IMG/VR virus record: IMGVR_UViG_3300027983_002388
Direction: 5' to 3' (one strand)
Source: a virus
Length of the DNA stretch: 64,000 nucleotides
A model generated the notes under the pieces. That model did no database searches, had not been told where the DNA came from, and was given only the letters and a program-made list of their open reading frames with translations. Of the stretch, positions 40,720 to 63,731 are shown piece after piece (position 1 is the stretch's first letter; each line of letters opens with the position of its first letter). Position numbers and translations under genes: made by a program.

Positions 40720-43700
40720 GTGCCTGTAGTAATCAAAGCTGAGGATCAGCCTGTTGTTGTAGCTACATCTGATTATCCTTACGCCAAATGGAAGTTTGAG
40801 ACGTTCAATCCGGTTCAAAGTCGGATTATGGATTTTTATGACAAGGATGTAAACGGTCTTATCGCCGCTATGACTTCAGCAGGCAAGACAGTCGTAGCTG
40901 AAATGTTTCTTGCGCAAGAAATTCGTAAACGTGGTGGCAAGGGCATGTTCCTTGCTCCTTTGCGTGCATTGGCTCGTGAGAAAATCACCGATTGGAAAAA
41001 CGAGAATTATCACTTCGCCGACCAGAAAATTTCTATCTGCACAGGTGATTATAGGCTCACAAAAGAGCGTGCCAAAGAATTGAATGATGCCAATCTCATC
41101 ATCATGACTTCGGAAATGTTAAATCACCGCAGTCGCAATCATAAGGCCGAACAAAATAATTGGCTTCTTGATGTTGGCACGTTAATTATTGATGAATGTT
41201 TGTCTCCAAATGCAATAATTGAAACAGATCAAGGTCCAATTTCTATTGGAGACATCATTGACAAAAATCTGGATGTTAAAGTTGCATCCATGAATCACTC
41301 AACCAAACAAATTGTATTCAAAAAAATAGTTGCTCGTCAGAAAAAGTTGTTAAAAAGAAGATGGCACACCATATATTATGACGGTGGGCATATTTCTGCG
41401 ACATCAAATCATTTGGTGTGGTGTGAAAATCGTGGTTATATTCCCTCTAAAGACATTCAAGAGGGAGATGTTATTTATGTACGAGGAATTAACGAAGAGA
41501 GAAAAACAAGTAATATTGGGAACTTTACTGGGAGACGGTTCGATAGCTCGACTTCCGCACGGAAAGTCAGCAAGATTGAGGGTTCAACAGTGTTCGGCTC
41601 AAAAGGCTTTAGTCGAATGGAAGTACAACGAGTTGAAGCGATTGGTTGGCACCCCTCCACAAATCAAACCGAACCAAGGGTACGGAAAGGAAGTGTGCAG
41701 ATTCAACACATTGTCAAGCAAAATGTTGTTGGCAATACATTCGATGTGTTATCCACGAGGGAAGAAAATAGTAAATTCTCAGTGGTTGGACGAGATCACC
41801 GATCCGGTGGCATTGGCGGTGTGGTACATGGACGACGGAAGCCAGGGTCCAAGTATGATGGCAATTCACACCGAGGGCTTTCCCAAATCAGAAGTGGAAT
41901 TGTTAGCGCATTGGTTGGAAACGAAATGGTCGGTGGCTTGCGAAGCCTATCCGACAAAACAATATTGGCAACTCAGATTTCCAGCGAAGGGTCGGGATCG
42001 TTTTCAAGAACTGGTTCGTCACGAAATAATTTCAGACATGAATTACAAGGTGCTGCCAAAAATGGAGCAGATATTTTGTTCGATGTGTGGTCAGAAATTC
42101 ATCGCAGATCGCCGCAGTCTTCATCAAGTCAGGAAGGTCATGCTTTGTGGGGCCAAGGAGTGTCGGTTGAATTGGGACAGGATGTACAGCCGGACGGAGA
42201 CATGGATTCAGAGGAATCTTGGTGTTGCGACTTAGAAGTTGAATCTGATTGTTTTGAAGATTGCAATTTTTTTGCAGATGGAGTTCTTGTCCATAATAGT
42301 CACTTGTTGACTGTTCCAGGTCGTGGAGATCACCTGGAAGTTGGACTCATGAAGTTCACAGAGATCAATCCCAAGGCTCGTCTCGTGTTGCTTTCAGCAA
42401 CGATGCCTAATGTAGAAGAGATTGCCGACTGGATTAGTTATTCTTTGACCAAGCGTGAAACTTTCATGTTGCGGTCCAAGTATCGACCAGTGCCTTTGAC
42501 TCTTCACTATGAGTCTTATTACGACGTAGGCAGATACGATCAAGTCGAAGAAGAGAAGGTCAATAAAGCCCTTGAAATTATTGAATGGTATCCAGACGAC
42601 AAGTTCCTTGTCTTCGCCCATACAAAGCGTACTGGCGAATTGATGAAGCAAAATTTGCGATCATTGGGCATTGAAGCTCAATTTCACAATGCTGATTTGC
42701 AAGCTGATGAGCGTGCTAAGGTGGAAGATCGTTTCAAAACTGATCCTAAGCTACGGGTCATTGTGGCTACATCGACTTTGGCATGGGGCTTAAACCTTCC
42801 TGCTCGACGTGTGATTATTTTGGGCGTCAATCGAGGAATTGGCGAGGTTGAAACTCACGATATTCTTCAGATGGTCGGTCGATCTGGTCGGCTGGGAATT
42901 GATCCGATGGGTGATGCGTACATCCTCGTTCCTGAAAGTGAAGAGGCAAAATATCGTCAGAAATTCAGCAAGCCGAATCGTATTGAATCCCAGCTTTTAG
43001 AAAAAGTTGGTGACAAATACAAGGTGTTAGCTTTCCATCTTGTTAGTGAAATTCATCACGGCACTGTGTCAACAACCGATGATGTTCATGCTTGGTATAA
43101 GCGGTCGTTGGCTTATTTCCAAAACAAGGCTCTGGATGAAACTGTTGTAGACCAGACTTTAGACTTACTGCGGAAATGCAGTGCGGTTTGGAAAGAAGAT
43201 GCTGTTGAAGGTGAGACGGATGAAAAATGGATTTGCCGACCTATTGGGAAAGTTTCCAGCATGTTTTACTTCAGTCCATTTGATGTCTCGGACTTGTATT
43301 TTAACTTCAAGAATTTATTCCAAGACAATAAAGAGGACGACGATTACTTCGTGTCAACGGCTCTGGGAAATATTGATGGTCAGAGAATGAATATAGTTTC
43401 TCGTATTGAGAAAGAAGAGATGAGTCTTTATGCCGCAAAGGTGCGGACCTTGATGCCAGGGAAGTTCTTCAATGATGCCTCTTTGAAGGCTAGTTTTTGC
43501 TACTTCAATTTGTTAAATGGCGTGAACAGCCAAGCCTGTGCCACAACGCAAAGGAATCTTCAGTTCGATTTCAATCGGCTGTCACAGGTTCTTCAGTCGC
43601 TCGATACATTTGGCGGCAATTGGCAACGTGAAAGTTACTTCAAGATTCTTGAGGGGCGTATTACCAATGGGGTTCCAGTTCACTTAGTTGATCTTTGTCG

Positions 43701-43884
43701 TTTGGCAAACATTGGCAAAGCACGAGCTACGAAGCTCTATGAAGCTGGATTTAAGACTGTTGAATCGGTTGCTGATATGGACTTTGAGAACTTCAAGAAG
43801 ATTGTCAACAGTACGGGTAAATCCATGAAGGTAGACGCAGCTAAGGAAGTGTTTGAATCTGCCAAGGTGTTCGCTTTGCTTTAA
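40720..43884 (+). CDS. Ski2/Hel308-like SF2 helicase precursor containing an intein
   Basis: FNPVQ, TSAGKT, APLRALA, DE/SH split by the intein, LSAT, ATSTLAWGLNLPA, QMVGRSGR, C-terminal HhH; GTG start after AAGGAG. Confidence 0.92.
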   Translation: MPVVIKAEDQPVVVATSDYPYAKWKFETFNPVQSRIMDFYDKDVNGLIAAMTSAGKTVVAEMFLAQEIRKRGGKGMFLAPLRALAREKITDWKNENYHFADQKISICTGDYRLTKERAKELNDANLIIMTSEMLNHRSRNHKAEQNNWLLDVGTLIIDECLSPNAIIETDQGPISIGDIIDKNLDVKVASMNHSTKQIVFKKIVARQKKLLKRRWHTIYYDGGHISATSNHLVWCENRGYIPSKDIQEGDVIYVRGINEERKTSNIGNFTGRRFDSSTSARKVSKIEGSTVFGSKGFSRMEVQRVEAIGWHPSTNQTEPRVRKGSVQIQHIVKQNVVGNTFDVLSTREENSKFSVVGRDHRSGGIGGVVHGRRKPGSKYDGNSHRGLSQIRSGIVSALVGNEMVGGLRSLSDKTILATQISSEGSGSFSRTGSSRNNFRHELQGAAKNGADILFDVWSEIHRRSPQSSSSQEGHALWGQGVSVELGQDVQPDGDMDSEESWCCDLEVESDCFEDCNFFADGVLVHNSHLLTVPGRGDHLEVGLMKFTEINPKARLVLLSATMPNVEEIADWISYSLTKRETFMLRSKYRPVPLTLHYESYYDVGRYDQVEEEKVNKALEIIEWYPDDKFLVFAHTKRTGELMKQNLRSLGIEAQFHNADLQADERAKVEDRFKTDPKLRVIVATSTLAWGLNLPARRVIILGVNRGIGEVETHDILQMVGRSGRLGIDPMGDAYILVPESEEAKYRQKFSKPNRIESQLLEKVGDKYKVLAFHLVSEIHHGTVSTTDDVHAWYKRSLAYFQNKALDETVVDQTLDLLRKCSAVWKEDAVEGETDEKWICRPIGKVSSMFYFSPFDVSDLYFNFKNLFQDNKEDDDYFVSTALGNIDGQRMNIVSRIEKEEMSLYAAKVRTLMPGKFFNDASLKASFCYFNLLNGVNSQACATTQRNLQFDFNRLSQVLQSLDTFGGNWQRESYFKILEGRITNGVPVHLVDLCRLANIGKARATKLYEAGFKTVESVADMDFENFKKIVNSTGKSMKVDAAKEVFESAKVFALL
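41197..42297 (+). mobile_element. Intein (367 aa) in helicase motif II
   Basis: N-terminal CLSPNAII, block B ATSNH, C-terminal CDLEV...NFFADGVLVHN followed by Ser; splicing restores IIDESH. Confidence 0.93.
41477..42235 (+). CDS. LAGLIDADG homing endonuclease in the +1 frame inside the intein
   Basis: ILGTLLGDGS and LAVWYMDDGS motifs, HTEGF; GGAG 9 nt before ATG; C-terminal CxxC...CxxxxC. Confidence 0.9.
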   Translation: MYEELTKREKQVILGTLLGDGSIARLPHGKSARLRVQQCSAQKALVEWKYNELKRLVGTPPQIKPNQGYGKEVCRFNTLSSKMLLAIHSMCYPRGKKIVNSQWLDEITDPVALAVWYMDDGSQGPSMMAIHTEGFPKSEVELLAHWLETKWSVACEAYPTKQYWQLRFPAKGRDRFQELVRHEIISDMNYKVLPKMEQIFCSMCGQKFIADRRSLHQVRKVMLCGAKECRLNWDRMYSRTETWIQRNLGVAT

Positions 43885-44591
43885 CGGCGAATTTTGCGAG
43901 TCTTGGTGATTCTTTCTAATAGCTTCTGTTTGCTGATGTAGGTTTTCTGGACGCCAGTTCTCACTGAGCGTTGCTTGAACGCAGCAAATGAAGCCGAGCC
44001 ACTGCACTCACCTAATAGACTTCCAGTGCTGCTCACCAAACAGCATGAGCAGCAATGCGCAGATGGCGGTGTAATAGACACTCCTACGCCACCACAATCT
44101 CCCACAGATACGCTGGTTCCTCCTCCGTTTATGGAGCAACCGAAGGGAGCGCCGCAAGCATCGCTGCATCCTGACAGTGACACTGTTCCAGCACCAATTG
44201 CCGTAAAAGAAAATCCTGATCCATACAGACAGCAGCCTGATGTTGACAGGGTGATAGTAATAGTTGAGCATGGAATAGAGCAAGTCGGGACTGAAGTGTC
44301 TGGCACTGATCCAGTGGTTGCTTGCGCATAAACATATCCATCACTGTCTTCTATATCAAACAGATATGCTTGATAATCAAAGTCTGGAAAATCAACATCT
44401 AATTCAGGCGCACGAAGGGGAGCAGGCACAGCAATAGGCGCACAATCACATCCGGGCGGATAAACACTTGAGCTTGTTCCACACAAATACACATAGGTCC
44501 AGCTTGTGTAGCATGGACATGGTGGGCAACACTTGCAGTTGCAGCCGCAATAGCTGCCAGTTCCCAAGCAATATGGAGGATTACATGCCAT
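43881..44591 (-). CDS. Cysteine-rich hypothetical protein
   Basis: 236 aa with many Cys clusters, coupled to the upstream ORF. Confidence 0.65.
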   Translation of the reverse strand: MACNPPYCLGTGSYCGCNCKCCPPCPCYTSWTYVYLCGTSSSVYPPGCDCAPIAVPAPLRAPELDVDFPDFDYQAYLFDIEDSDGYVYAQATTGSVPDTSVPTCSIPCSTITITLSTSGCCLYGSGFSFTAIGAGTVSLSGCSDACGAPFGCSINGGGTSVSVGDCGGVGVSITPPSAHCCSCCLVSSTGSLLGECSGSASFAAFKQRSVRTGVQKTYISKQKLLERITKTRKIRR

Positions 44592-53630: not shown

Positions 53631-53776
53631 TGTCATATCCTCTCTTATAATCCAAGAAGACACCTGTTGAATATCTTGAACATTTTTCAAGATTAGTATT
53701 TTGGGTCTTGAACGAGAAATATTCAGCGGCTATATTCCATCTTGCTCGTACCGGATATATGCTCCTTGGAGGAAAA

Positions 53777-55855
53777 ATGACAACAACCCTGAAGAAAGCA
53801 ATTGGCAACTTTAACCGAAATCAATTCCGTGCGTTGCACGCCGAAATGACTTTCGGGGAGTATCTGGAGCTTTGTTACAAGCAGCCGTTTCTGCTTCGCA
53901 ACGCTTGGCAGACACTTTATGACATGATTATGGAGAAGGGTTCCGGTACGACTGAAGAGTACCGAAAAACCTATACCAACTATTACTTCTTCGATGATCC
54001 AGATTATCCAATCATTGGTTTAACGCCAATGAAGGACGCCCTGGTCAAGTTCATCAAGGGAGCCGCTGGTGGCTACGGAACAGAACGCCGTATTCTTTTG
54101 CTGCACGGTCCTGTTGGTAGCTCGAAGTCAACGCTGTGTCGCTTGCTCAAGCGAAGCATGGAGAAGTTCTCCCGCACAGACCAAGGAGCATGGTACTCCT
54201 ACAAGTGGGTCAATCTACCAACTGGTGTAGATGGTGTGTACACAGAAGCAGAATGTCCTTGCCCGATGCACGAGCAGCCTCTCAAGTTGCTTCCAGTCGA
54301 AGTTCGTCAACCTATTATTGATGAATTGAATCGTATTTTTGAGGAGATTTCTCCTGAAGAACGGCAGCAAGACCTTTATACGCTGCGTTGTGCAGATGAG
54401 TTGAATCCGCTGTGTAATAAGTTCATGACTTATTTCTTGAAGAAGTATGATGGCGACCTGGAGCAAGTGCTTGAGAAGCACATCAGGGTTGTTCGTAAGG
54501 TCTACAGCGAAGCGGATCGTTGCGGTATTGCAACCTTCCAGCCGAAGGACGAGAAGAATCAGGACAGCACCGAACTTACTGGTGACATCAACTTCCGTCA
54601 GATCGGCAACTTTGGTTCCGACTCCGATCCACGAGCCTTCTCCTTTGATGGTGAATTCTGTGTCGGAAATCGTGGCATCATCGAGTTTATCGAAGCCCTG
54701 AAGCTCGATACTGCGTTCTTGTACGACCTCTTGGGTGCCTCGCAAGAGCAAAGCATCAAGCCGAAGAAGTTCTCTCAGGTCAGTATTGATGAAGCGATCA
54801 TAGCTCACACAAACGACCCAGAATTCCAGAAACTCAAGAGTAATCAGTACATGGAAGCATTCCGTGACCGTACCACCAAGATCGACGTTCCTTACACCCT
54901 CAAGTGGTCTGAAGAACTCCGCATTTTGGAGAAGGATTATGGTCCTGGCAAGGTGAAGCAGCATATTGCTCCTCACACATTGGAAATTGCTGCTCTGTGG
55001 AGTGTATTGACCCGTTTGGCCGACGACAAGGATGGCAAAATTTCTTTGATCGAGAAGGCCGAACTGTATGACAACAAGCTATTGGCTGGTTGGACAGAAG
55101 ATGCCGTCAAGGAAATGAAGGATAAGTATCCTGATGAGGGTATGCAGGGCGGTGTGTCCGTGCGATACCTTCAGGATAAGATTTCCAATTGCTTGGCCAA
55201 TAACCATGACTATGTGAATATGTTCATGGTGTTGAATGAACTCCGGGATGGGCTGGAACATTCTTCTCTATTGTCCAACAAGGAACAGGTCGGTCGTTAC
55301 ATCTCCTGCATCGACTTGGCTCTCAAGAAGCTGACCGAAATCTTGAAGGCTGAGGTACAGAAGGCTCTTGTGGGCGACGAAGACGCAATCATTCGGCTTT
55401 GCACGAACTATATCGACAACGTGATGGCATTCATCAATAAGTCGAAGATGAAAGACCCAATCACGGGTCAAGACCGCAAGCCGGATGAGCGACTGATGCG
55501 ACAGATTGAAGAGAAGATTCAAATCCCGGATACGGGCTGTGAAGACTTCCGCCGTCAGATCGCAGCGTTCATCGGTGATTTGGCTCACAAGGGCAAGCAG
55601 TTCCGCTGGGACAGCAATCCTAAGCTCCGCAAGGCTCTCGAAGCCAAGCTGTTCGAGGACGTTAAGGACACCATCAAGCTGAGTGCCTTGAACGTCAGTG
55701 GTGCAACAGTTGTGGATAAGGACATTCAGGAAAAGATCGACGCTATCAAGACCCGGCTCATCAAGCAATACGGGTATAACGAGCGGTCGGCAACTGATGT
55801 TCTGGACTTCGTGGGCGGCATCTTCGCCCGTGGCGATTTGGCCGAAGATGACTAA
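53777..55855 (+). CDS. prkA: PrkA/YeaG AAA+ protein (serine kinase family)
   Basis: LLHGPVGSSKS, CPMHEQPL, FQPKDEKNQD, SDPRAFSFDGE, NRGIIEF, EAFRDR; start after GGAGG. Confidence 0.95.
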   Translation: MTTTLKKAIGNFNRNQFRALHAEMTFGEYLELCYKQPFLLRNAWQTLYDMIMEKGSGTTEEYRKTYTNYYFFDDPDYPIIGLTPMKDALVKFIKGAAGGYGTERRILLLHGPVGSSKSTLCRLLKRSMEKFSRTDQGAWYSYKWVNLPTGVDGVYTEAECPCPMHEQPLKLLPVEVRQPIIDELNRIFEEISPEERQQDLYTLRCADELNPLCNKFMTYFLKKYDGDLEQVLEKHIRVVRKVYSEADRCGIATFQPKDEKNQDSTELTGDINFRQIGNFGSDSDPRAFSFDGEFCVGNRGIIEFIEALKLDTAFLYDLLGASQEQSIKPKKFSQVSIDEAIIAHTNDPEFQKLKSNQYMEAFRDRTTKIDVPYTLKWSEELRILEKDYGPGKVKQHIAPHTLEIAALWSVLTRLADDKDGKISLIEKAELYDNKLLAGWTEDAVKEMKDKYPDEGMQGGVSVRYLQDKISNCLANNHDYVNMFMVLNELRDGLEHSSLLSNKEQVGRYISCIDLALKKLTEILKAEVQKALVGDEDAIIRLCTNYIDNVMAFINKSKMKDPITGQDRKPDERLMRQIEEKIQIPDTGCEDFRRQIAAFIGDLAHKGKQFRWDSNPKLRKALEAKLFEDVKDTIKLSALNVSGATVVDKDIQEKIDAIKTRLIKQYGYNERSATDVLDFVGGIFARGDLAEDD

Positions 55856-55874
55856 TCTCGTCTGAGGGTTTAAT

Positions 55875-55900
55875 GGGATGGATTCACAAGAGTCCATCCC
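55875..55900 (+). terminator. Hairpin after prkA
   Basis: GGGATGGATTC-acaa-GAGTCCATCCC. Confidence 0.6.
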
Positions 55901-55945
55901 CTTCTCTCATTTCATTTTTAACTCATTTAATTTTTAGGCAATCTC

Positions 55946-56146
55946 ATGAATAATCATTGGCTAGAATCAAAGAGAAACAAAGATAGCGACAATTTTGGTA
56001 TCGCTGGCAACATAAAGTTTATCATCGATGGCAAAGAAATGATAGCAATGAATAAGGATGGTTTTTATATTGAAGGACGTTTGGTCAAGAACGATTTGAA
56101 AATATACGAAGCGTTTAAGAGTTTTATTGGACGATCTCATGAATAA
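55946..56146 (+). CDS. Small hypothetical protein
   Basis: ORF starting MNNHWL. Confidence 0.55.
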   Translation: MNNHWLESKRNKDSDNFGIAGNIKFIIDGKEMIAMNKDGFYIEGRLVKNDLKIYEAFKSFIGRSHE

Positions 56147-56354
56147 CCATTGGCTTGATTGCGCCAAGAAAAAACAATTGTTCAAAGAGATAGACGAAAT
56201 CGGTCTTGAAGTATGGGGCGAAGATGGCACCTTGGGTGACTTGTTTGCTTCTCTCAATGATGAACAAATAGACTTCTTGATGAATATGCTTGTTCGAGAT
56301 TTCATGACTGACCCAGACGATATGTCATTCGGCGTAGAACTGATCGCACCCTAA
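56139..56354 (+). CDS. Small hypothetical protein
   Basis: ORF also starting MNNHWL. Confidence 0.55.
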   Translation: MNNHWLDCAKKKQLFKEIDEIGLEVWGEDGTLGDLFASLNDEQIDFLMNMLVRDFMTDPDDMSFGVELIAP

Positions 56355-56364
56355 AGGATTCAGT

Positions 56365-56547
56365 ATGCAACAGCTTGAGATTAAAGAAATCACAGCCGAA
56401 GAGGAACGACGCTTCTTGGTTAATCGGCGGGCCAGTCGGGAAACTATCATTCGGCAGTTTTCTAATGCTGACCCGGACACGTTGTCCGAAGAACAAAAAG
56501 ATGAAGTCCTGATCCAGATCAGAGACTTCAATTACGGTAACAAATAA
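56365..56547 (+). CDS. Small hypothetical protein
   Basis: AAGGA RBS. Confidence 0.55.
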   Translation: MQQLEIKEITAEEERRFLVNRRASRETIIRQFSNADPDTLSEEQKDEVLIQIRDFNYGNK

Positions 56548-56584
56548 TTACCCGAACAAGTCTATCCGAATCTTGGAGGGATAA

Positions 56585-57808
56585 ATGCCACGCAGAATTG
56601 AAGAAGACCACAAAGATTTCAGAGATGTAGTATCTGGCCGTATTCGGAGAGCTTTGAAGAAGTTCATCAAGAGCGGCCAGATCGTCCGAAATCGTGGTAA
56701 AAATGGCAAGATAGCAATCACCATTCCTAAGATCGACATCCCGCATATTGTTTATGGCAGTAGCGATGATGGTGTTGGTCGTGGACCTGGAAAAGATGGT
56801 GACGTTATTGGTCGTGATCCAAAGCCAGGAAAAGGCAATGGGGCTGGAGAAGGCGAAACCGAAGGCATCACCATTAACCTGGACCTTGAAGAAGTTCTCA
56901 AGTTCATGAAGGAAGAACTTCAACTTCCGAACCTGAAGAAGAAGCCAAACGAAATCTATGACGAAATCAAGATTAAATACAACAACATTTCGTTGATTGG
57001 ACCTGAATCTTTACGTCACAATAGACGCACGCTGATGCAGACTCTCAAGCGTCAGGCTGCTGAAGGCACTCTCAATAATCTCAAGTATGTTCCTGGTCTT
57101 CCTGACCCGGTGAGAGTATTGCAGCCCATCAAAGAAGACAAGCGATACCGTCAGTTCAATGAGATTAAGATTCCATCCAGCAATGCGTTGGTGATCTTTG
57201 CTCGTGACGGCTCTGGCAGCATGGACGACGCCAAGTGCGATATTATCAGTGATATGTCTTGGTGGATTGATACTTGGATTCGTCGCTTTTATGACCGAGT
57301 TGATCGTCTGTATGTGTGGCACGACTCGATGGCTATGGAAGTCGATGAAGAAAAATTCTATAAGTATCGGTTTGGTGGCGGCACCACATGCTCCTCAGCA
57401 TTGAAATTCATCACCAAACAGTTTGAGAATCGTTACCCGCCGAACAAGTGGAACATTTATGTGTTTTACTTTACTGACGGTGAAAATTGGGGTGATGATA
57501 ATGAGACTTTCATCAAGACTCTTCAGGACGAGTTCACTCCTGAAGTGGTGAACTTCACCGGCATCACCCAGATATTGTCATATACTTATGATGGGTCGGT
57601 AAAACATCAGGTTGACGAGGCAATCAAAGCTGGTCGTCTCGACAAGGAATATGTAAGAACTGTTTCTATCGGGCCGACGACTGAAGGTAAATCGACAGCA
57701 GGATATTACAGTCCACCAACTTTGAGCGAAGACGAACGGAACGAGCAAATCATGGATGCGATCAAAAAGTTGCTCGGCAATCCAGCCACAATTAGAGAGG
57801 AAGCATAA
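56585..57808 (+). CDS. yeaH: YeaH/YhbH (DUF444, VWA-domain) protein
   Basis: LPNLKKK, DGSGSM MIDAS-like motif, GGGTTCSSAL, WNIY..YFTDGENW. Confidence 0.92.
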   Translation: MPRRIEEDHKDFRDVVSGRIRRALKKFIKSGQIVRNRGKNGKIAITIPKIDIPHIVYGSSDDGVGRGPGKDGDVIGRDPKPGKGNGAGEGETEGITINLDLEEVLKFMKEELQLPNLKKKPNEIYDEIKIKYNNISLIGPESLRHNRRTLMQTLKRQAAEGTLNNLKYVPGLPDPVRVLQPIKEDKRYRQFNEIKIPSSNALVIFARDGSGSMDDAKCDIISDMSWWIDTWIRRFYDRVDRLYVWHDSMAMEVDEEKFYKYRFGGGTTCSSALKFITKQFENRYPPNKWNIYVFYFTDGENWGDDNETFIKTLQDEFTPEVVNFTGITQILSYTYDGSVKHQVDEAIKAGRLDKEYVRTVSIGPTTEGKSTAGYYSPPTLSEDERNEQIMDAIKKLLGNPATIREEA

Positions 57809-59400
57809 TGGGATTCATGCACGGTGCGCCAATGCTACTTGGCAACAATACGGTTCCTGGCGTGCAATTGTCGCCAGAACTGAAGATGTATATTCCAAAG
57901 ATTCTTCAGGCTTGCCGAGATTGGGGTCTGGACTTCTATCCAACTGTAGTTCAGTTGTTGACTTACGACGAGATCAGTGAAATTGCCGCCTATGGTGGTT
58001 TTCCTGTGCGTTTCCCGCACTGGTCTTTCGGTATGGAATATGAAGAACTTCAGCGAGGATATGAGTTTGGGATGCACAAGATTTACGAGATGGTAATCAA
58101 TACCAACCCGTGCTACATCTACAATCTCAGTTCCAATACTCTGCTCGATCACTTGACCGTTGTTGCCCACGCTACAGGACACAATGACTTTTTCAAGAAC
58201 AATATTCACTTCAGCGCTACCGATACGAACATGCTGAATAAGATGGCCAATCACGGCACTCGCATTCGTAAGTACATGGCTCGTTGGGGCAAGGAACGTG
58301 TTATTGAGTTTTTGGATTGGGTTATGAGGCTTGAAACTTTGATCGACGGAGCAGAAGCCTGGACTGATCGAGTCGTTTCTGAAAAGAACATTCGGGACGA
58401 GAGAACATACCGTCATCCAAGACGATTGACGGTAAACAAAGACCGTATGTACATGGAGCCTTTCTTAAACACAAAGGATTTCCGTGATCGAGAAAACGAG
58501 CGTATCTCTAAGCAAGATGTCGCTGATGAAATTGGCGTCTTTAAGGAGCCTACCAAAAACATCCTTGCTTATTTAAGAGATAACGCACCACTGAAACCGT
58601 GGCAGGCCGATATTGTGTCGATGTTATATGAAGAAGCAATTTACTTCTTCCCGCAACGTCAGACCAAGACCATAAATGAAGGATGGGCGTCGATGACTGA
58701 CTCGGTGATTATGGCCGAGCAGGGTTTCGTAGCACTTGGACAGAAGAGTCACGATTGCGGCATTATCGAATACGCCGATCACAAGATGGGTGTATTGGGC
58801 GGCAAGTATTCTATGAACCCATATAAGCTGGGATATTACCTGCTTAGGGATATTCGTAGCCGCTGGGACAAGGGACAGTTCGGACCTGAATGGGATGAAT
58901 GTACCGACATCCGAATCAAAGAAAAGTGGGATACGAAAGCCGGATTGGGTAAAGAGAAGATTTTCGAGGTTCGCAAATATTACGACGACTTCACTTTGCT
59001 CCATGAGTTCTTTACTGAAGACTTTTGCCGTGAACAAGAATACTTCCACTGGAAACACTTCCCGAATGGTGAATTCAAAATTGACAATCGTGAGTTCAAA
59101 GACATCAAGCGTCTTCTGCTCCGAAGGCATTTGAATGGCGGCTTGCCGGATATTCGCCTGACAGAGCCGAACTATCGTGGCAAGGGAGCTATGTTCCTTC
59201 AGCACAACTTTGATGGTCGTGATATTTACGAGCCATATGTCTTTGATGTATTGACCGCACTGCGGGCAGTGTGGGGAGAAGATGTCTATCTGGCATCTGA
59301 AGATGAAGATGGCAATGAGAAAGTTTATTGCTGTTACGGGACCGACAGCACAAAGGACGTGGAGCTTGTGTCTCGTAAGGAGCACATCAAGCGTGGATGA
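57808..59400 (+). CDS. spoVR: SpoVR/YcgB family protein
   Basis: GFPVRFPHWSFG, IYEMVINTNPC, HATGHNDFFKNN, PQRQTKTINEGWAS, NPYKLG. Confidence 0.95.
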   Translation: MGFMHGAPMLLGNNTVPGVQLSPELKMYIPKILQACRDWGLDFYPTVVQLLTYDEISEIAAYGGFPVRFPHWSFGMEYEELQRGYEFGMHKIYEMVINTNPCYIYNLSSNTLLDHLTVVAHATGHNDFFKNNIHFSATDTNMLNKMANHGTRIRKYMARWGKERVIEFLDWVMRLETLIDGAEAWTDRVVSEKNIRDERTYRHPRRLTVNKDRMYMEPFLNTKDFRDRENERISKQDVADEIGVFKEPTKNILAYLRDNAPLKPWQADIVSMLYEEAIYFFPQRQTKTINEGWASMTDSVIMAEQGFVALGQKSHDCGIIEYADHKMGVLGGKYSMNPYKLGYYLLRDIRSRWDKGQFGPEWDECTDIRIKEKWDTKAGLGKEKIFEVRKYYDDFTLLHEFFTEDFCREQEYFHWKHFPNGEFKIDNREFKDIKRLLLRRHLNGGLPDIRLTEPNYRGKGAMFLQHNFDGRDIYEPYVFDVLTALRAVWGEDVYLASEDEDGNEKVYCCYGTDSTKDVELVSRKEHIKRG

Positions 59401-59578
59401 GTCAAAAGTATTGACTGTATATGAGGAAGAAAGTTCTTATGAATTTATGTCTAGGCTCCAATTCGTCTTGATCGAGCTTGGAATAAAGGTCAGAGTAGTC
59501 GAAGAACATCCAGATTGTGCGATATATGCACTGTCACACGCTGAGAGAATAGATGGCAAAGAAAAAGAGTTCAATTGA
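59393..59578 (+). CDS. Small hypothetical protein
   Basis: Fills the gap between spoVR and the ClpP-like gene. Confidence 0.45.
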   Translation: MDESKVLTVYEEESSYEFMSRLQFVLIELGIKVRVVEEHPDCAIYALSHAERIDGKEKEFN

Positions 59579-60230
59579 TTTCCTGGAGTTGGTGAATCAG
59601 GTTCATAATTATGACTTGAATCCATTCAATCGTGAAATCTATTTACACAGCCATTATTCTGGACACGATGAAGAGAGTGGCATCGAATATCGGATGGCCA
59701 CTCAGTTCATCAAGAATTTGAATTTGCTGGATCAGGATGCCGAAGAAAATATCCTGATTCATCTGCATAGTCCAGGTGGTGATTGGATTCACGGCATGGC
59801 TATTTTTGACGCAATTTTAGTGGCTCGGTCTTCGGTGAATATCTTGGCTTATGGGGAAGTATCTTCGATGAGCAGTGTGCTGTTACAAGCGGCATGTAAG
59901 CGAGTCATGATGCCATCTTGTGAGTTCATGATTCATCGTGGGTTTTTGAGTTTGGAAGGCGTGGCGACCACAGTTCAATCGAATGCGGCGTGGAACAAAA
60001 AGACCGACATGAGAATGCTTCGACTATATGCGGGCAGAGCCGTGGACGGTCCTTTTTTTCGTCAAAATGACATGAACGAAAATCAGGTGGTTAAATTTAT
60101 CGACCAAAAAATACGCAAACTTGGCGATTGGAATCTCAGTGCAGAAGAAGCTGTCTATTACGGATTAGCAGACGGCGTATTCGGACAGCCTGGATATGAA
60201 TCGCTAGACAAAATAAGGAAATGTTCATGA
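59553..60230 (+). CDS. clpP: ClpP-like protease
   Basis: HSPGG, GEVSSMS (Ser), FMIH (His), DWNLSAEEAVYYGLAD (Asp). Confidence 0.85.
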   Translation: MAKKKSSIDFLELVNQVHNYDLNPFNREIYLHSHYSGHDEESGIEYRMATQFIKNLNLLDQDAEENILIHLHSPGGDWIHGMAIFDAILVARSSVNILAYGEVSSMSSVLLQAACKRVMMPSCEFMIHRGFLSLEGVATTVQSNAAWNKKTDMRMLRLYAGRAVDGPFFRQNDMNENQVVKFIDQKIRKLGDWNLSAEEAVYYGLADGVFGQPGYESLDKIRKCS

Positions 60231-61136: not shown

Positions 61137-63731
61137 ATGACGCTAGAAATTTGCGGATTTGAACATTTACACCTTCATACGGATTTCAGCACCCTCGATG
61201 GCTACGGCATGGTTGAGGAATATGCGACTCGTGCGCCACTCATCAATCAAAAGTTTTTGACCATCTCAGATCACGGCATGTTGGGGGCCATCCCTCGTCA
61301 AATCAAAGCCTGTGACAAGATGAATGACAAAAAGGGAAAAGATACCCTATCTCCCATCTTCGCCTGTGAATTGTACGTCAACAGGCTTCAGCCCGAATCC
61401 AACGGTCTGGGTGACATGCAGAAGTTCATGGCTGATCTAAATGAAGATGAACAAAAGGAATGCCGTGCAGGATCGCATCTTTTGGCTATTGCCTACAACG
61501 AAATAGGCTATAAGAATCTGGTCCGTCTATCATCCTGGGCGTGGACCAAGGGATTCTATCGTCATCCTCGTGTCAACTACGAACAGCTTCAGAAGTACAA
61601 GGAAGGACTGTTCTTCACGTCTTGTTGCTACAACAGTGAAGTTGGACGGGCTTTTGACCAACACGGTGAAGACGCCGCTTTCGCTATGATCGAGCGATAT
61701 ATTGAGATGTTCGGCAAGGAACACTACTTGCTGGAAATCATGTTGCTCGATTTTGAAAAACAAAAACCATATGACGCCTTCATTATCAAGGCTAAAGAAA
61801 AGTATGGTTTGAAATTGATCCTCACCAATGACTGTTTAGTCGATGGAACTTTAATTTGGACACATTTAGGTTTTCAACTTATTGAAAACTTAAATGTTGG
61901 AGACATGGTTCTTACACATAATAATAGATATCGTCCTATTGAAGTTAAAGTCAGTCGTAAACTAAATCATGATGAAAGAGTTTTTGAAGTCAAAGCAACT
62001 GCTGGCACTTTTTCTTTTCAATCAACTGGAAATCACAAAATTTATGTAAAACAAGGGGTCGATTTTAATTGGATTAAAACATCGAATTTAAAAAAAGGCG
62101 ATTGTTTGGTTTATCCTGATTTTTCAAAATGTTCATTTTTTTCCAATCAAGATTTAGATTACATTGATCTTAGTGAATTCATCGAAGATGAAGATTTGTA
62201 TTCTGAAGTAACATATTCTAATAGACATAATTTGCGATGTGGCTTGCGTGAGAAGGACGGATATTATTTATCCCAAAGAGGATTTAGCGGCAATTCCACA
62301 GTTAAAATCCCGAAGTTATTTCCTGTAGATAAAGAATTTTGTCGAGTATTAGGATGGTACATTGCTGAAGGTTGGAGTGACACAAATTCGTACCAAGTTG
62401 GTTTTGCTCTTTCTATTCATGAACAAGATGTTGCTGATTTTTTAATTGCTTATTTTTCCAAATTTGGCATCAAAGTGAAGCAATATTCTGTTTCTGAAAA
62501 TGGGATTGCCATTAGATTTTCTAGCAAGGTATTCAATAGGGTTTTATCTAAAATATGTGGCAAAAAGGCTCTTAACAAACATTTGCCTTATATTAGTGGA
62601 ACTTGGATTGGTAAATTCAGTGAAAGTCAATTCAAGCAAATTATAGCTTGTCACCAGTTTGGTGATGGAAGTTATTTGAATGGAGTTTTTGCTTTTCACA
62701 GCACAAGCAAGAAATTGATTTTTGAGATAGCTTCTGTGTTAAACGCAATGGGATTTCCGTCAATTCCATCGGTTGATAAGAAAAAAAATGTTAATTGGAA
62801 TCAATGTTGGCATTTGAATTATTCTGGCGACGCCGGGAAAAAGCTAAGCAATTTTCTTTGTGGTGTATCACAGGATACAGGCAATTCTTCTTTGTGGACT
62901 TACGAGAATGAACATTGGTTGATTAAAATTCAAGAGGTCAATGAAATTGTTTACCAAGGAAATGTTCATGATTTTCAAGTTAAAGAAGATCATTCATTCA
63001 CGGCAAACATGGCTGTAGTTTCTAATTGTCACTACTGCCAAGCAGAAGACAGTCATTTTCAGCGGCTTATGTTGATGGTTCAAACGGGACGTACTCTGGA
63101 AGAGATCAAGAGTGCTATTGCCCAGGATCAGATGCAAGACTTCTTTGAGCTTCAGGACGCCAACCTTTGGATGAAGTCTGAAGAAGACCTGAATGCCAAG
63201 TGGGAGAAAGACTATAAGGATATTGTGCCTTATGAGCTTTTCTGTGAAGCCAAGCGAACGACTGTCGAAATCTGCAATAAAGCCAAGGGTGTTCAGCTTG
63301 ATCGCTCGCTTAAATTGCCAGTCATTCCAGATGCCGATGAAACTCTCAAAGAACTCGTCATGCGTGGCTTCAAGTGGCGTGGTTTGCCACAAACCAGAGA
63401 ATATACAGATCGCATCAAAGAAGAATACAGTCTCATTACCCGCAAGGGCTTCTCCAGTTACTTCTTGATTCAAAAGATGATGACAGATGAAGCACGACGG
63501 GTGTGTGTAGAGCTTCTGGGGTTTGGTGATGGTTCACAAGCTGTCGGTCCAGGTCGAGGCTCGGCGGTGGGCGCATTGACGTGTTATTGTTTGGGCATCA
63601 CGAATGTAGACCCTATCTATGAAGGGCTGTTGTTCAGTCGATTCATGAGCGAAGCTCGTGGTGGTCGAAGTATTGTTCTTGAGTTCAGAAACATGGACCC
63701 GCTCCCTCCAGAGGATGCGTTTGCAGCTTAA
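61137..63731 (+). CDS. dnaE: DNA polymerase III alpha N-terminal part (PHP domain plus start of palm), with intein
   Basis: HLHLHTDFSTLDG, ISDHG, GYKNL, TND/CHY, YFLI, GPGRGSAVGAL..YCLGITNVDP, LLFSRF; ends before the PDIDxD motif. Confidence 0.9.
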   Translation: MTLEICGFEHLHLHTDFSTLDGYGMVEEYATRAPLINQKFLTISDHGMLGAIPRQIKACDKMNDKKGKDTLSPIFACELYVNRLQPESNGLGDMQKFMADLNEDEQKECRAGSHLLAIAYNEIGYKNLVRLSSWAWTKGFYRHPRVNYEQLQKYKEGLFFTSCCYNSEVGRAFDQHGEDAAFAMIERYIEMFGKEHYLLEIMLLDFEKQKPYDAFIIKAKEKYGLKLILTNDCLVDGTLIWTHLGFQLIENLNVGDMVLTHNNRYRPIEVKVSRKLNHDERVFEVKATAGTFSFQSTGNHKIYVKQGVDFNWIKTSNLKKGDCLVYPDFSKCSFFSNQDLDYIDLSEFIEDEDLYSEVTYSNRHNLRCGLREKDGYYLSQRGFSGNSTVKIPKLFPVDKEFCRVLGWYIAEGWSDTNSYQVGFALSIHEQDVADFLIAYFSKFGIKVKQYSVSENGIAIRFSSKVFNRVLSKICGKKALNKHLPYISGTWIGKFSESQFKQIIACHQFGDGSYLNGVFAFHSTSKKLIFEIASVLNAMGFPSIPSVDKKKNVNWNQCWHLNYSGDAGKKLSNFLCGVSQDTGNSSLWTYENEHWLIKIQEVNEIVYQGNVHDFQVKEDHSFTANMAVVSNCHYCQAEDSHFQRLMLMVQTGRTLEEIKSAIAQDQMQDFFELQDANLWMKSEEDLNAKWEKDYKDIVPYELFCEAKRTTVEICNKAKGVQLDRSLKLPVIPDADETLKELVMRGFKWRGLPQTREYTDRIKEEYSLITRKGFSSYFLIQKMMTDEARRVCVELLGFGDGSQAVGPGRGSAVGALTCYCLGITNVDPIYEGLLFSRFMSEARGGRSIVLEFRNMDPLPPEDAFAA
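61833..63026 (+). mobile_element. Intein (398 aa) with in-frame LAGLIDADG endonuclease
   Basis: CLVDGTLI, STGNH, LGWYIAEG, QFGDGS, VHDFQVKEDHSF...VSN followed by Cys; AT-rich. Confidence 0.93.

Follow-up and report, generated by a model that had tools for sequence, protein, structure and literature searches.

Among described systems, the cyanobacterial dnaX intein is the closest counterpart of the element examined here. A LAGLIDADG endonuclease is encoded there by an open reading frame (ORF) in the +2 frame of an intein that itself remains open, an arrangement for which frame-specific selection was reported and an invasion proposed, and which was called rare (10.64898/2026.09.14.751524); that preprint cites Gorbalenya 1998 for the architecture (Phillips, DeSimone, Gogarten 2026). 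In the current work, we describe a related arrangement in a window of 64,000 nucleotides (the whole stretch of DNA that was analysed) from IMG/VR virus record IMGVR_UViG_3300027983_002388, where an intein occupies the Walker B site of a helicase gene. Very probably, this intein is read in two frames, with a separate LAGLIDADG endonuclease in the +1 frame, and the whole 1101-base-pair (bp) element homes. An earlier interpretation of the window from its letters alone (hereafter, the sequence-only reading) had already proposed a dual-coding intein and had allowed that related out-of-frame architectures might be in print, which the dnaX intein and the actinophage inteins discussed below bear out.

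Like the dnaX intein, the window's element combines two coding regions on the same strand, an open and disordered intein frame, a separate ORF with a putative Shine-Dalgarno site, purifying selection on the endonuclease, a patchy distribution, and a match to I-WcaI (6X1J). The endonucleases are homologous (PF03161; P0092, P0098, and P0103 are 34-39% identical over 54-72% of the query), and the dnaX intein occupies the equivalent Walker B site (DE/CH). The dnaX intein differs in its frame (+2 in 79 of 80 loci, against +1 here), in its host (dnaX rather than a phage helicase), in carrying its Cys cluster at the N-terminus of the endonuclease rather than the C-terminus, and in having mini-inteins; moreover, both the endonucleases and the splicing domains fall into separate clades. 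The window thus displays the dnaX-type architecture, in which the intein frame stays open while a second frame holds an entire endonuclease ORF, without being a member of the dnaX intein family itself. The architecture is already described, and the window departs from dnaX in its reading frame, its host, and the tail of its endonuclease.

Three further systems are comparable, each taken here from the accessible part of its source. Non-canonical inteins of actinophages carry an endonuclease VII-like gene in frame 3, or a LAGLIDADG or VSR gene in antisense (Gosselin, Arsenault, Gogarten, 10.1101/2025.01.02.630785); they share with the window a separate-frame endonuclease, evidence that transfer is still under way, and the proposed invasion model, whereas no same-strand +1 LAGLIDADG gene is among the types that this part describes, and the hosts differ. 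The dnaX case is called antisense in the same part of that source, yet it lies on the same strand in the +2 frame in 79 of the 80 loci considered here. The ShiLan element is of HNH type, is encoded in the third frame, and is without a splicing domain (Arsenault, Gosselin, Gogarten 2025, PMC11855218). Fractured genes possess a separate endonuclease gene inside the intein locus, often overlapping the C-terminal half, but their host frame is broken and depends on trans-splicing, whereas the host frame of the window is continuous (Dassa et al. 2009, PMC2677866). No published account of this helicase intein, or of a same-strand +1 LAGLIDADG intein, was found in the literature searched, which took in few subscription papers. 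The main addition of this work is evidence of a wide spread, together with a search method for such inteins; the locus itself offers a clean natural case in which about 250 dual-coded codons have long been maintained and for which near-identical empty target alleles exist.

The helicase intein and its out-of-frame endonuclease gene

The helicase frame is open from 40669 (or from the GTG at 40720, which was picked as the start because homologs start there) to 43884, and it therefore passes without a stop through the intein at 41197-42297 (1101 bp; 367 amino acids, aa), as the sequence-only reading had stated for IIDE/C...HN/SHLL. The best NCBIfam matches of the N-extein are PRK02362 and Hel308, both below the cut-off. 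Since five close, intein-free relatives (L006-L010) read IDESHLL at the insert site, the insert splits the Walker B motif, and its excision would rebuild DESH at the junction. For class 1 inteins, block B is defined by TxxH and block F by its Asp; the class 1 layout is seen here as an in-frame insert, running from Cys1 to His-Asn and followed by Ser, that is missing from the alleles of those five relatives. The residues concerned (Cys160, Thr228, and His231 in the N-terminal part; Asp504, His525, and Asn526 in the C-terminal part) are invariant in 13/13 precursors, and hidden Markov models built solely from 10 other inteins match the window's intein at both ends, with E 2e-15 for the N end and E 7e-7 for the C end. 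The splicing residues are invariant, and removal is needed to restore DESH. The insert is likely a standard-type intein: the stop-free host frame would yield a precursor from which the linker-bearing intein would be excised to restore the helicase.

Between the two splicing regions lies a host-frame linker of 246 aa, composed of 15% Ser, 13% Gly, and 9% Arg, in agreement with the Ser/Gly/Arg-rich sequence of about 250 aa first noticed. Its identity is 23-42% in 11 of 12 homologs (77% in P0122), and in a structural model of the precursor (13 sequences) pLDDT (predicted local distance difference test score) is mostly 60-90 for the exteins and mostly 21-30 for the linker. The view that the linker is without a conserved protein role is supported. 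The host frame has no endonuclease match, so the element is not a canonical intein with an in-frame endonuclease; it is continuous in the window and in 12 aligned homologs, so the gene is not fractured either. The positions of all features are collected in Table 1.

Table 1. Features of the helicase gene, its intein, and the overlapping endonuclease gene (positions in the window)
Feature	Position	Strand and frame	Remarks
Helicase N-extein	40720..41196	+	Hel308/Ski2-like, superfamily 2 (SF2); ends in Walker B ...IIDE; Pfam DEAD, E 5e-19
Intein N-terminal splicing region	41197..41481	+	Cys1; block B TxxH; ends GDVIYV
Shine-Dalgarno-like GGAG	41464..41467	+	Putative; from intein Gly-Asp codons; 9 nt before the ATG
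Endonuclease gene	41477..42235	+, +1 frame	252 aa; PF03161 LAGLIDADG_2, E 3.8e-32
Host-frame linker	41482..42219	+	246 aa; stop-free; predicted disordered
First LAGLIDADG motif	41513..41539	+	ILGTLLGDG; Asp20 invariant in 7/7
Second LAGLIDADG motif	41813..41839	+	LAVWYMDDG; Asp119/120 invariant in 7/7
Four-Cys cluster, endonuclease C-terminus	42077..42163	+	Cys201/204/224/229 invariant in 7/7 aligned, window included
Intein C-terminal splicing region	42220..42297	+	Block F (CDLEV); block G (VLVHN)
Helicase C-extein	42298..43884	+	Begins with Ser (+1 nucleophile); Helicase_C and HHH_5 matches

Over the same DNA, the +1 frame encodes the endonuclease that the sequence-only reading had described, with its GGAG, start, stop, and Cys cluster all recovered in Table 1. 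The protein scores 112 bits against a PF03161 cut-off of 25, and its AlphaFold model has a mean pLDDT of 87.9. A Foldseek search matched this model to I-WcaI (E 6e-14; template modelling (TM) score 0.70) and I-SceI (TM 0.69), which are also the best matches by sequence (E 1e-20 and 4e-18, respectively). Both I-WcaI (6X1J) and I-SceI (1R7M) are two-motif LAGLIDADG_2 enzymes, intron-encoded by their PDB listing, and the match does not reach the Cys tail, stopping near residue 194. By its score, its two motifs with acidic residues, and the LAGLIDADG fold of the model, the protein can be assigned to the LAGLIDADG_2 family. The Cys cluster is likely a zinc-binding, additional DNA-binding module; similar or repeated clusters are present in the +1 endonucleases of terminase inteins. 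In the host frame, the second motif (WYMDDG) leaves a shadow that reads VHGR[RW] and is present in 13/13 precursors.

The putative signals for translating this gene coincide with intein codons: the ATG sits in the Tyr-Val codons that follow the Shine-Dalgarno-like site, and the TAG sits in the Leu-Glu codons of block F. The endonuclease stop is found at the block F position in 8 of 10 dual-coded loci, whereas L013 has it four codons earlier and L021 further downstream, and similar Shine-Dalgarno-like sites occur at the same place in L003 (GGAG) and L001 (GGTGA). Every one of the nine loci with an intact 5' end has a start codon (ATG, GTG, or TTG; seven are ATG) before the first motif, and in 8/9 a +1-frame stop lies at most seven codons upstream of it. 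The +1 frame of the window is open for 41 codons further upstream, with an earlier ATG at 41378; position 41477 is favoured as the start because stops lie 2 and 7 codons upstream in L003 and L001.

That open upstream stretch is also compatible with a programmed +1 ribosomal frameshift close to where block B ends, which would produce the endonuclease as a fusion to the N-extein and the N-terminal splicing region (IntN). Such a frameshift would agree with the position of the +1 ORF, which begins where in-frame endonucleases do (the block B Gly and the first motif are 16 1/3 codons apart, compared with 18 in L004, L101, and L397). We nevertheless regard it as improbable: the start codons in the nine intact loci are built from differing host dipeptides, the close upstream stops leave few codons for a shift, and neither a shared slippery run nor a conserved RNA structure is visible. 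A hairpin over the Shine-Dalgarno site in the window's fold does not outperform shuffled sequences (z score -0.58) and is absent in L001 and L003. Since conserved starts are paired with nearby upstream stops, independent initiation is favoured over frameshifting, and the endonuclease is likely translated separately from its own ATG. A promoter scan returned 8 sites against 3.4 +/- 1.8 expected, including two 9/12 matches located roughly 100 bp upstream of the ATG; none was convincing, and they were not used as evidence.

Maintenance of two open frames

An endonuclease codon that begins with AA, AG, or GA places a stop in the host frame whenever the preceding codon ends in T. The window's gene has 66 such at-risk junctions and none is preceded by T, as opposed to 25.7% in the other long ORFs of the window, which agrees with the avoidance initially reported. 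Given the protein and the codon usage of the window, the probability of no host-frame stop is about 7e-11; the improbability claimed previously therefore stands, while the figure attached to it (6e-6) was conservative. Shuffling the codons of the gene itself 20,000 times never gave a stop-free sequence, and the longest stop-free run of this kind among 46 reference ORFs is 127 codons.

Relatives display the same pattern. Endonuclease homologs with available DNA amount to 165 rows, 16 of which (10 distinct sequences, window included) are dual-coded; the other 149 carry 2-44 stops in the corresponding host frame. The ten dual-coded loci comprise five helicase inteins and five terminase inteins at VV/C..N/CDE-like sites, and a sixth terminase case was added by L336. 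Across the ten, T precedes 0 of 820 at-risk junctions, and the nine diverged loci besides the window keep both frames open. Ten further helicase clusters, represented by protein sequences, have an open insert of the same length, all with the host-frame shadow of WYMDDG.

The nine diverged loci also bear on the suggestion that two compensating indels in the assembly hide an ordinary in-frame intein. The usual intein position of the endonuclease would fit such an error, and four of the sequencing runs compared (X1-X4) may be the source of the window. Contigs from 8 of 12 matching runs (X1-X8) were compared with the window: one contig each from X1, X2, and X3 (depth 363, 146, and 237), any of which could be the window's own source, spans the whole stretch with zero differences; two overlapping pieces from X4, which belongs to another study, cover it with no differences; X5 and X7 span both ends of the endonuclease gene, X8 covers part of the overlap, and X6 provides only short pieces. 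Indels are present in none of the 8 runs, 7 of which cover the overlap wholly or partly. An assembly error would not explain why the other frame is cleared of stops, and the homologs refute it by sharing the layout, so that we consider this explanation exceedingly improbable.

The two frames have diverged very differently. Between the window and L001, identity reaches 71% for the endonuclease frame but 34% for the host frame, and variability by endonuclease codon position is 0.52 at third positions against 0.27 and 0.12 at the others; third positions are the most variable in 26/26 pairs given. The strain variants listed for the overlap number three; each leaves the endonuclease protein unaltered but changes the host frame. 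Judged from identities and codon positions rather than from a formal ratio of nonsynonymous to synonymous rates, the endonuclease frame alone is conserved, and the host frame is relaxed yet kept stop-free. On these two points, the assembly and the homologs, the sequence-only reading is borne out: both frames are maintained, and the layout is real rather than an assembly artefact.

Several side observations concern these relatives. The T4-type terminase inteins L013, L014, L018/L094, L021, L096, and L336 have +1 endonucleases with repeated Cys clusters and a core 37-43% identical to that of the window. Additional inteins occur in the same helicase family at a STLAWG/C site, in P0122 (full-length) and L012 (151 aa), and at the P-loop in L295. 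In L033 and L129, endonuclease matches are crossed by open antisense frames with no intein signal. No close relative of this helicase intein was found in cultured phages.

Probable mobility and possible origins of the element

The endonuclease is predicted to cut intein-free alleles, upon which the entire 1101-bp element would home. The intein-less alleles that the sequence-only reading had called for exist (L006-L010), those of L007-L009 with 2-3 differences in 66 bases surrounding the site, and runs X1-X3 also contain a diverged helicase that is exactly 1101 bases shorter across the intein site. The distribution of the insert was examined on an extein tree, in which 74 of 95 rows were kept after removal of duplicates and of exteins shorter than 500 aa. 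An insert is present at the Walker B site in 15 of the 74 rows (14 of the same family and one unrelated, L328), a proportion that represents no frequency, as the insert-bearing proteins were gathered by an intein-targeted search. Its distribution needs 14 changes (mean 13.9 for shuffled labels), at least 10 of them forced by the branches starred on the tree, and the closest exteins to the window are intein-free. Exteins and linker also disagree: relative to P0122, the window is 65% identical in the exteins and 77% in the linker, whereas the corresponding values for P0124 are 80% and 41%. Finally, a contig from X7 has 2-3 differences in 618 intein bases against 9-10 in 91 C-extein bases (Fisher p <= 1e-6), with identity ending 20 bp beyond the intein junction. 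Taken together, the scattered presence and the near-identical intein within a diverged extein point to recent homing; the element is probably still mobile, homing being an inference here like splicing, independent initiation, and cleavage. The earlier proposal that homing is uncoupled from splicing would hold for the proteins, but the intein and the endonuclease gene appear to travel as a single DNA unit. As a separate observation, the unrelated insert in L328 (L328:2501-5707) is a different intein of 414 aa at this helicase site; it contains zinc fingers in frame and an apparent Vsr-type nuclease, the latter without a Pfam match.

This conflict between intein and extein histories, together with the two intact motifs, the silence of the overlap variants for the endonuclease, and the confidently modelled fold, speaks against the idea that the endonuclease is a dead passenger within a now vertically inherited element. 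Decayed relatives are known (L488, with a nonsense codon, and L459, a truncated remnant); for the window, we consider this possibility very improbable, slightly more so than frameshifting.

A number of findings weigh against a dual-coded, homing intein. Compared with Pfam, the window's intein scores 24 bits, below the cut-off of 35.8 (TIGR01443 is above threshold in L001 and L003, with no report for the window), and the Hint halves of the precursor model (13 sequences) show a strand pattern with pLDDT of just 37-73, which is not confident. Proteins P0122-P0131 are known from the host frame only, their +1 gene being deduced from the shadow motif. Initiation signals are poor in L095 (a TTG as the sole start, with short spacing) and in L014 (a GTG without a clear Shine-Dalgarno site). 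With respect to mobility, the tree is unable to separate gains from losses, sampling was intein-targeted as mentioned above, the X7 evidence consists of one contig at a depth of 8.75, and a helicase-wide scan found 2 of 80 loci to be dual-coded.

The trees leave three origins open; the likelihoods below refer to the question of origin only. The sequence-only reading had favoured the entry of a free-standing endonuclease gene into a mini-intein, which is now one possible origin among three and falls short of an even chance. The free-standing endonucleases L097 and L342, as well as P0006 of unknown context, do lie within or beside the +1 endonucleases, none of the inspected in-frame relatives showed the Cys tail, and the helicase and terminase endonucleases are related (support 87/88) while their splicing domains are ungrouped in the best tree. 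Conversely, no mini-intein of this helicase family was found among 5 loci and 11 full-length proteins (lengths 579-1845 aa only), the ribosome-binding site, start, and stop consist of intein codons, an incoming gene would bring approximately 14-18 host-frame stops, joined splicing domains are not rejected (approximately unbiased (AU) test, p = 0.095), and the free-standing relatives might be escapees. The one short relative seen, the L459 terminase intein of 205 aa, retains a remnant of the +1 endonuclease, so that this short form arose by loss. Monophyly of all the +1 endonucleases is not supported; the group of helicase and terminase endonucleases dissolved in a quick tree once gpA-type and more in-frame rows were added. 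We also considered a jump of the whole element between terminase and helicase, which was dropped in view of the ungrouped splicing domains in the best tree, although the AU test (p = 0.095) does not reject it.

A split-intein stage, later re-fused around the endonuclease gene, is given the same tentative weight as entry into a mini-intein. Trans-splicing would keep the host protein alive while stops were removed stepwise, according to a model in PMC2677866, and L103 is a gene fractured in this way at the Walker B site of DnaX, with an endonuclease that groups with +2 dual-coded ones (Shimodaira-Hasegawa-like approximate likelihood-ratio test (SH-aLRT) support 92). The +1 lineages yielded no split form, however, and L103 may equally be a breakdown product. 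Slightly less favoured, and likewise tentative, is an origin in which indels moved the endonuclease of a conventional in-frame LAGLIDADG_2 intein into another frame. In-frame relatives carry their endonuclease at the same intein position, in-frame inteins occur at the same DE/C helicase site (L004 and L101), and the endonuclease belongs to a 39-row group (support 96/98) containing 14 of 15 in-frame intein endonucleases; on the other hand, the shift requires that the alternate frame was already open, the tree backbone lacks resolution, and no in-frame member of this intein family was seen among 11 precursors. Both invasion and an indel shift must lose 14-18 host-frame stops, which a split-intein stage would permit. 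Two split loci were observed in the process: L103:1600-4300, a phage DnaX-like clamp loader with a split intein and a free-standing LAGLIDADG_2 gene between the halves, and L333:2501-4100, a DNA-ligase-like gene whose intein is apparently split, its halves lying about 900 bp apart.

Spread of the architecture and gene context of the window

The host-frame translation of the overlap from ten loci was built into a shadow profile and searched against 1.84 billion representatives, which yielded 81 protein clusters at E <= 0.001, most of them represented by protein sequence alone. Both intein ends flank the match in 75 of the 81, 69 fit the Walker B junction pattern, and none matches the endonuclease profile in frame. 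A Pfam scan of 79 proteins (P0127 and P0131 were already known as helicases) identified the hosts as Ski2-like, UvsW/XPB-like, and UvrD helicases, T4-type and gpA-type terminases, and a clamp loader. Among 162 further loci, intact +1 endonucleases are present in the gpA terminase inteins L491 and L509 and the near-copy L512, whereas the gpA terminase L488 has a nonsense codon in motif 2 of the endonuclease with the host frame still open. Cases in the +2 frame are a UvsW-like helicase (L426) and the cultured Xanthomonas phage FoX3, whose gp40 (L396:1396-3762, MT161383.1) contains a helicase intein at DE/C..HN/CHH, together with a LAGLIDADG_2 ORF that lies in the +2 frame and is missing from the annotation. 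For UvsW/XPB-like and UvrD hosts, no +1 case came with DNA, and a search directed at UvsW-like hosts likewise gave none.

Split, intact, nonsense-broken, and truncated forms are thus all observed. It is conceivable, if rather doubtful at present, that out-of-frame LAGLIDADG_2 inteins constitute a large hidden class (at least 75 clusters and at least six ATPase host types) that emerged repeatedly in the +1 and +2 frames by re-fusion of split inteins, borrows intein codons as ribosome site, start, and stop, and cycles between split, dual-coded, nonsense-broken, and truncated states. If the shadow clusters hold, mobile inteins are undercounted and many endonucleases overlooked wherever a survey sorts inteins by the presence of an in-frame endonuclease, and annotation would read such inteins as lacking an endonuclease and containing junk linkers. 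The split, intact, and decayed forms make the gain of endonucleases by inteins testable, and FoX3 offers a cultured example.

Judged by its genes, the window is part of a large phage: a PHROGs scan of 25 window proteins identified UvsX, SSB, DnaB, DnaE, a capsid-protein match, and thymidylate synthase. The DnaE ORF (61137-63731) contains an intein for which an in-frame endonuclease had been claimed; a LAGLIDADG_3 match is indeed in frame, but it is weak (E 0.0014) and below the cut-off. This ORF ends at 864 aa and is shorter than a full DnaE of roughly 1,100 aa. Three adjacent ORFs in 53708-60230 match PHROGs 22605, 19072, and 35217 (none of known function; one also matches a sporulation protein) and are followed by a ClpP-like protease; we take the ORFs of this region to resemble a PrkA/YeaH/SpoVR operon. 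Lastly, a very Cys-rich ORF of 236 aa on the minus strand (43881-44591) is convergent with the helicase gene and overlaps its stop.

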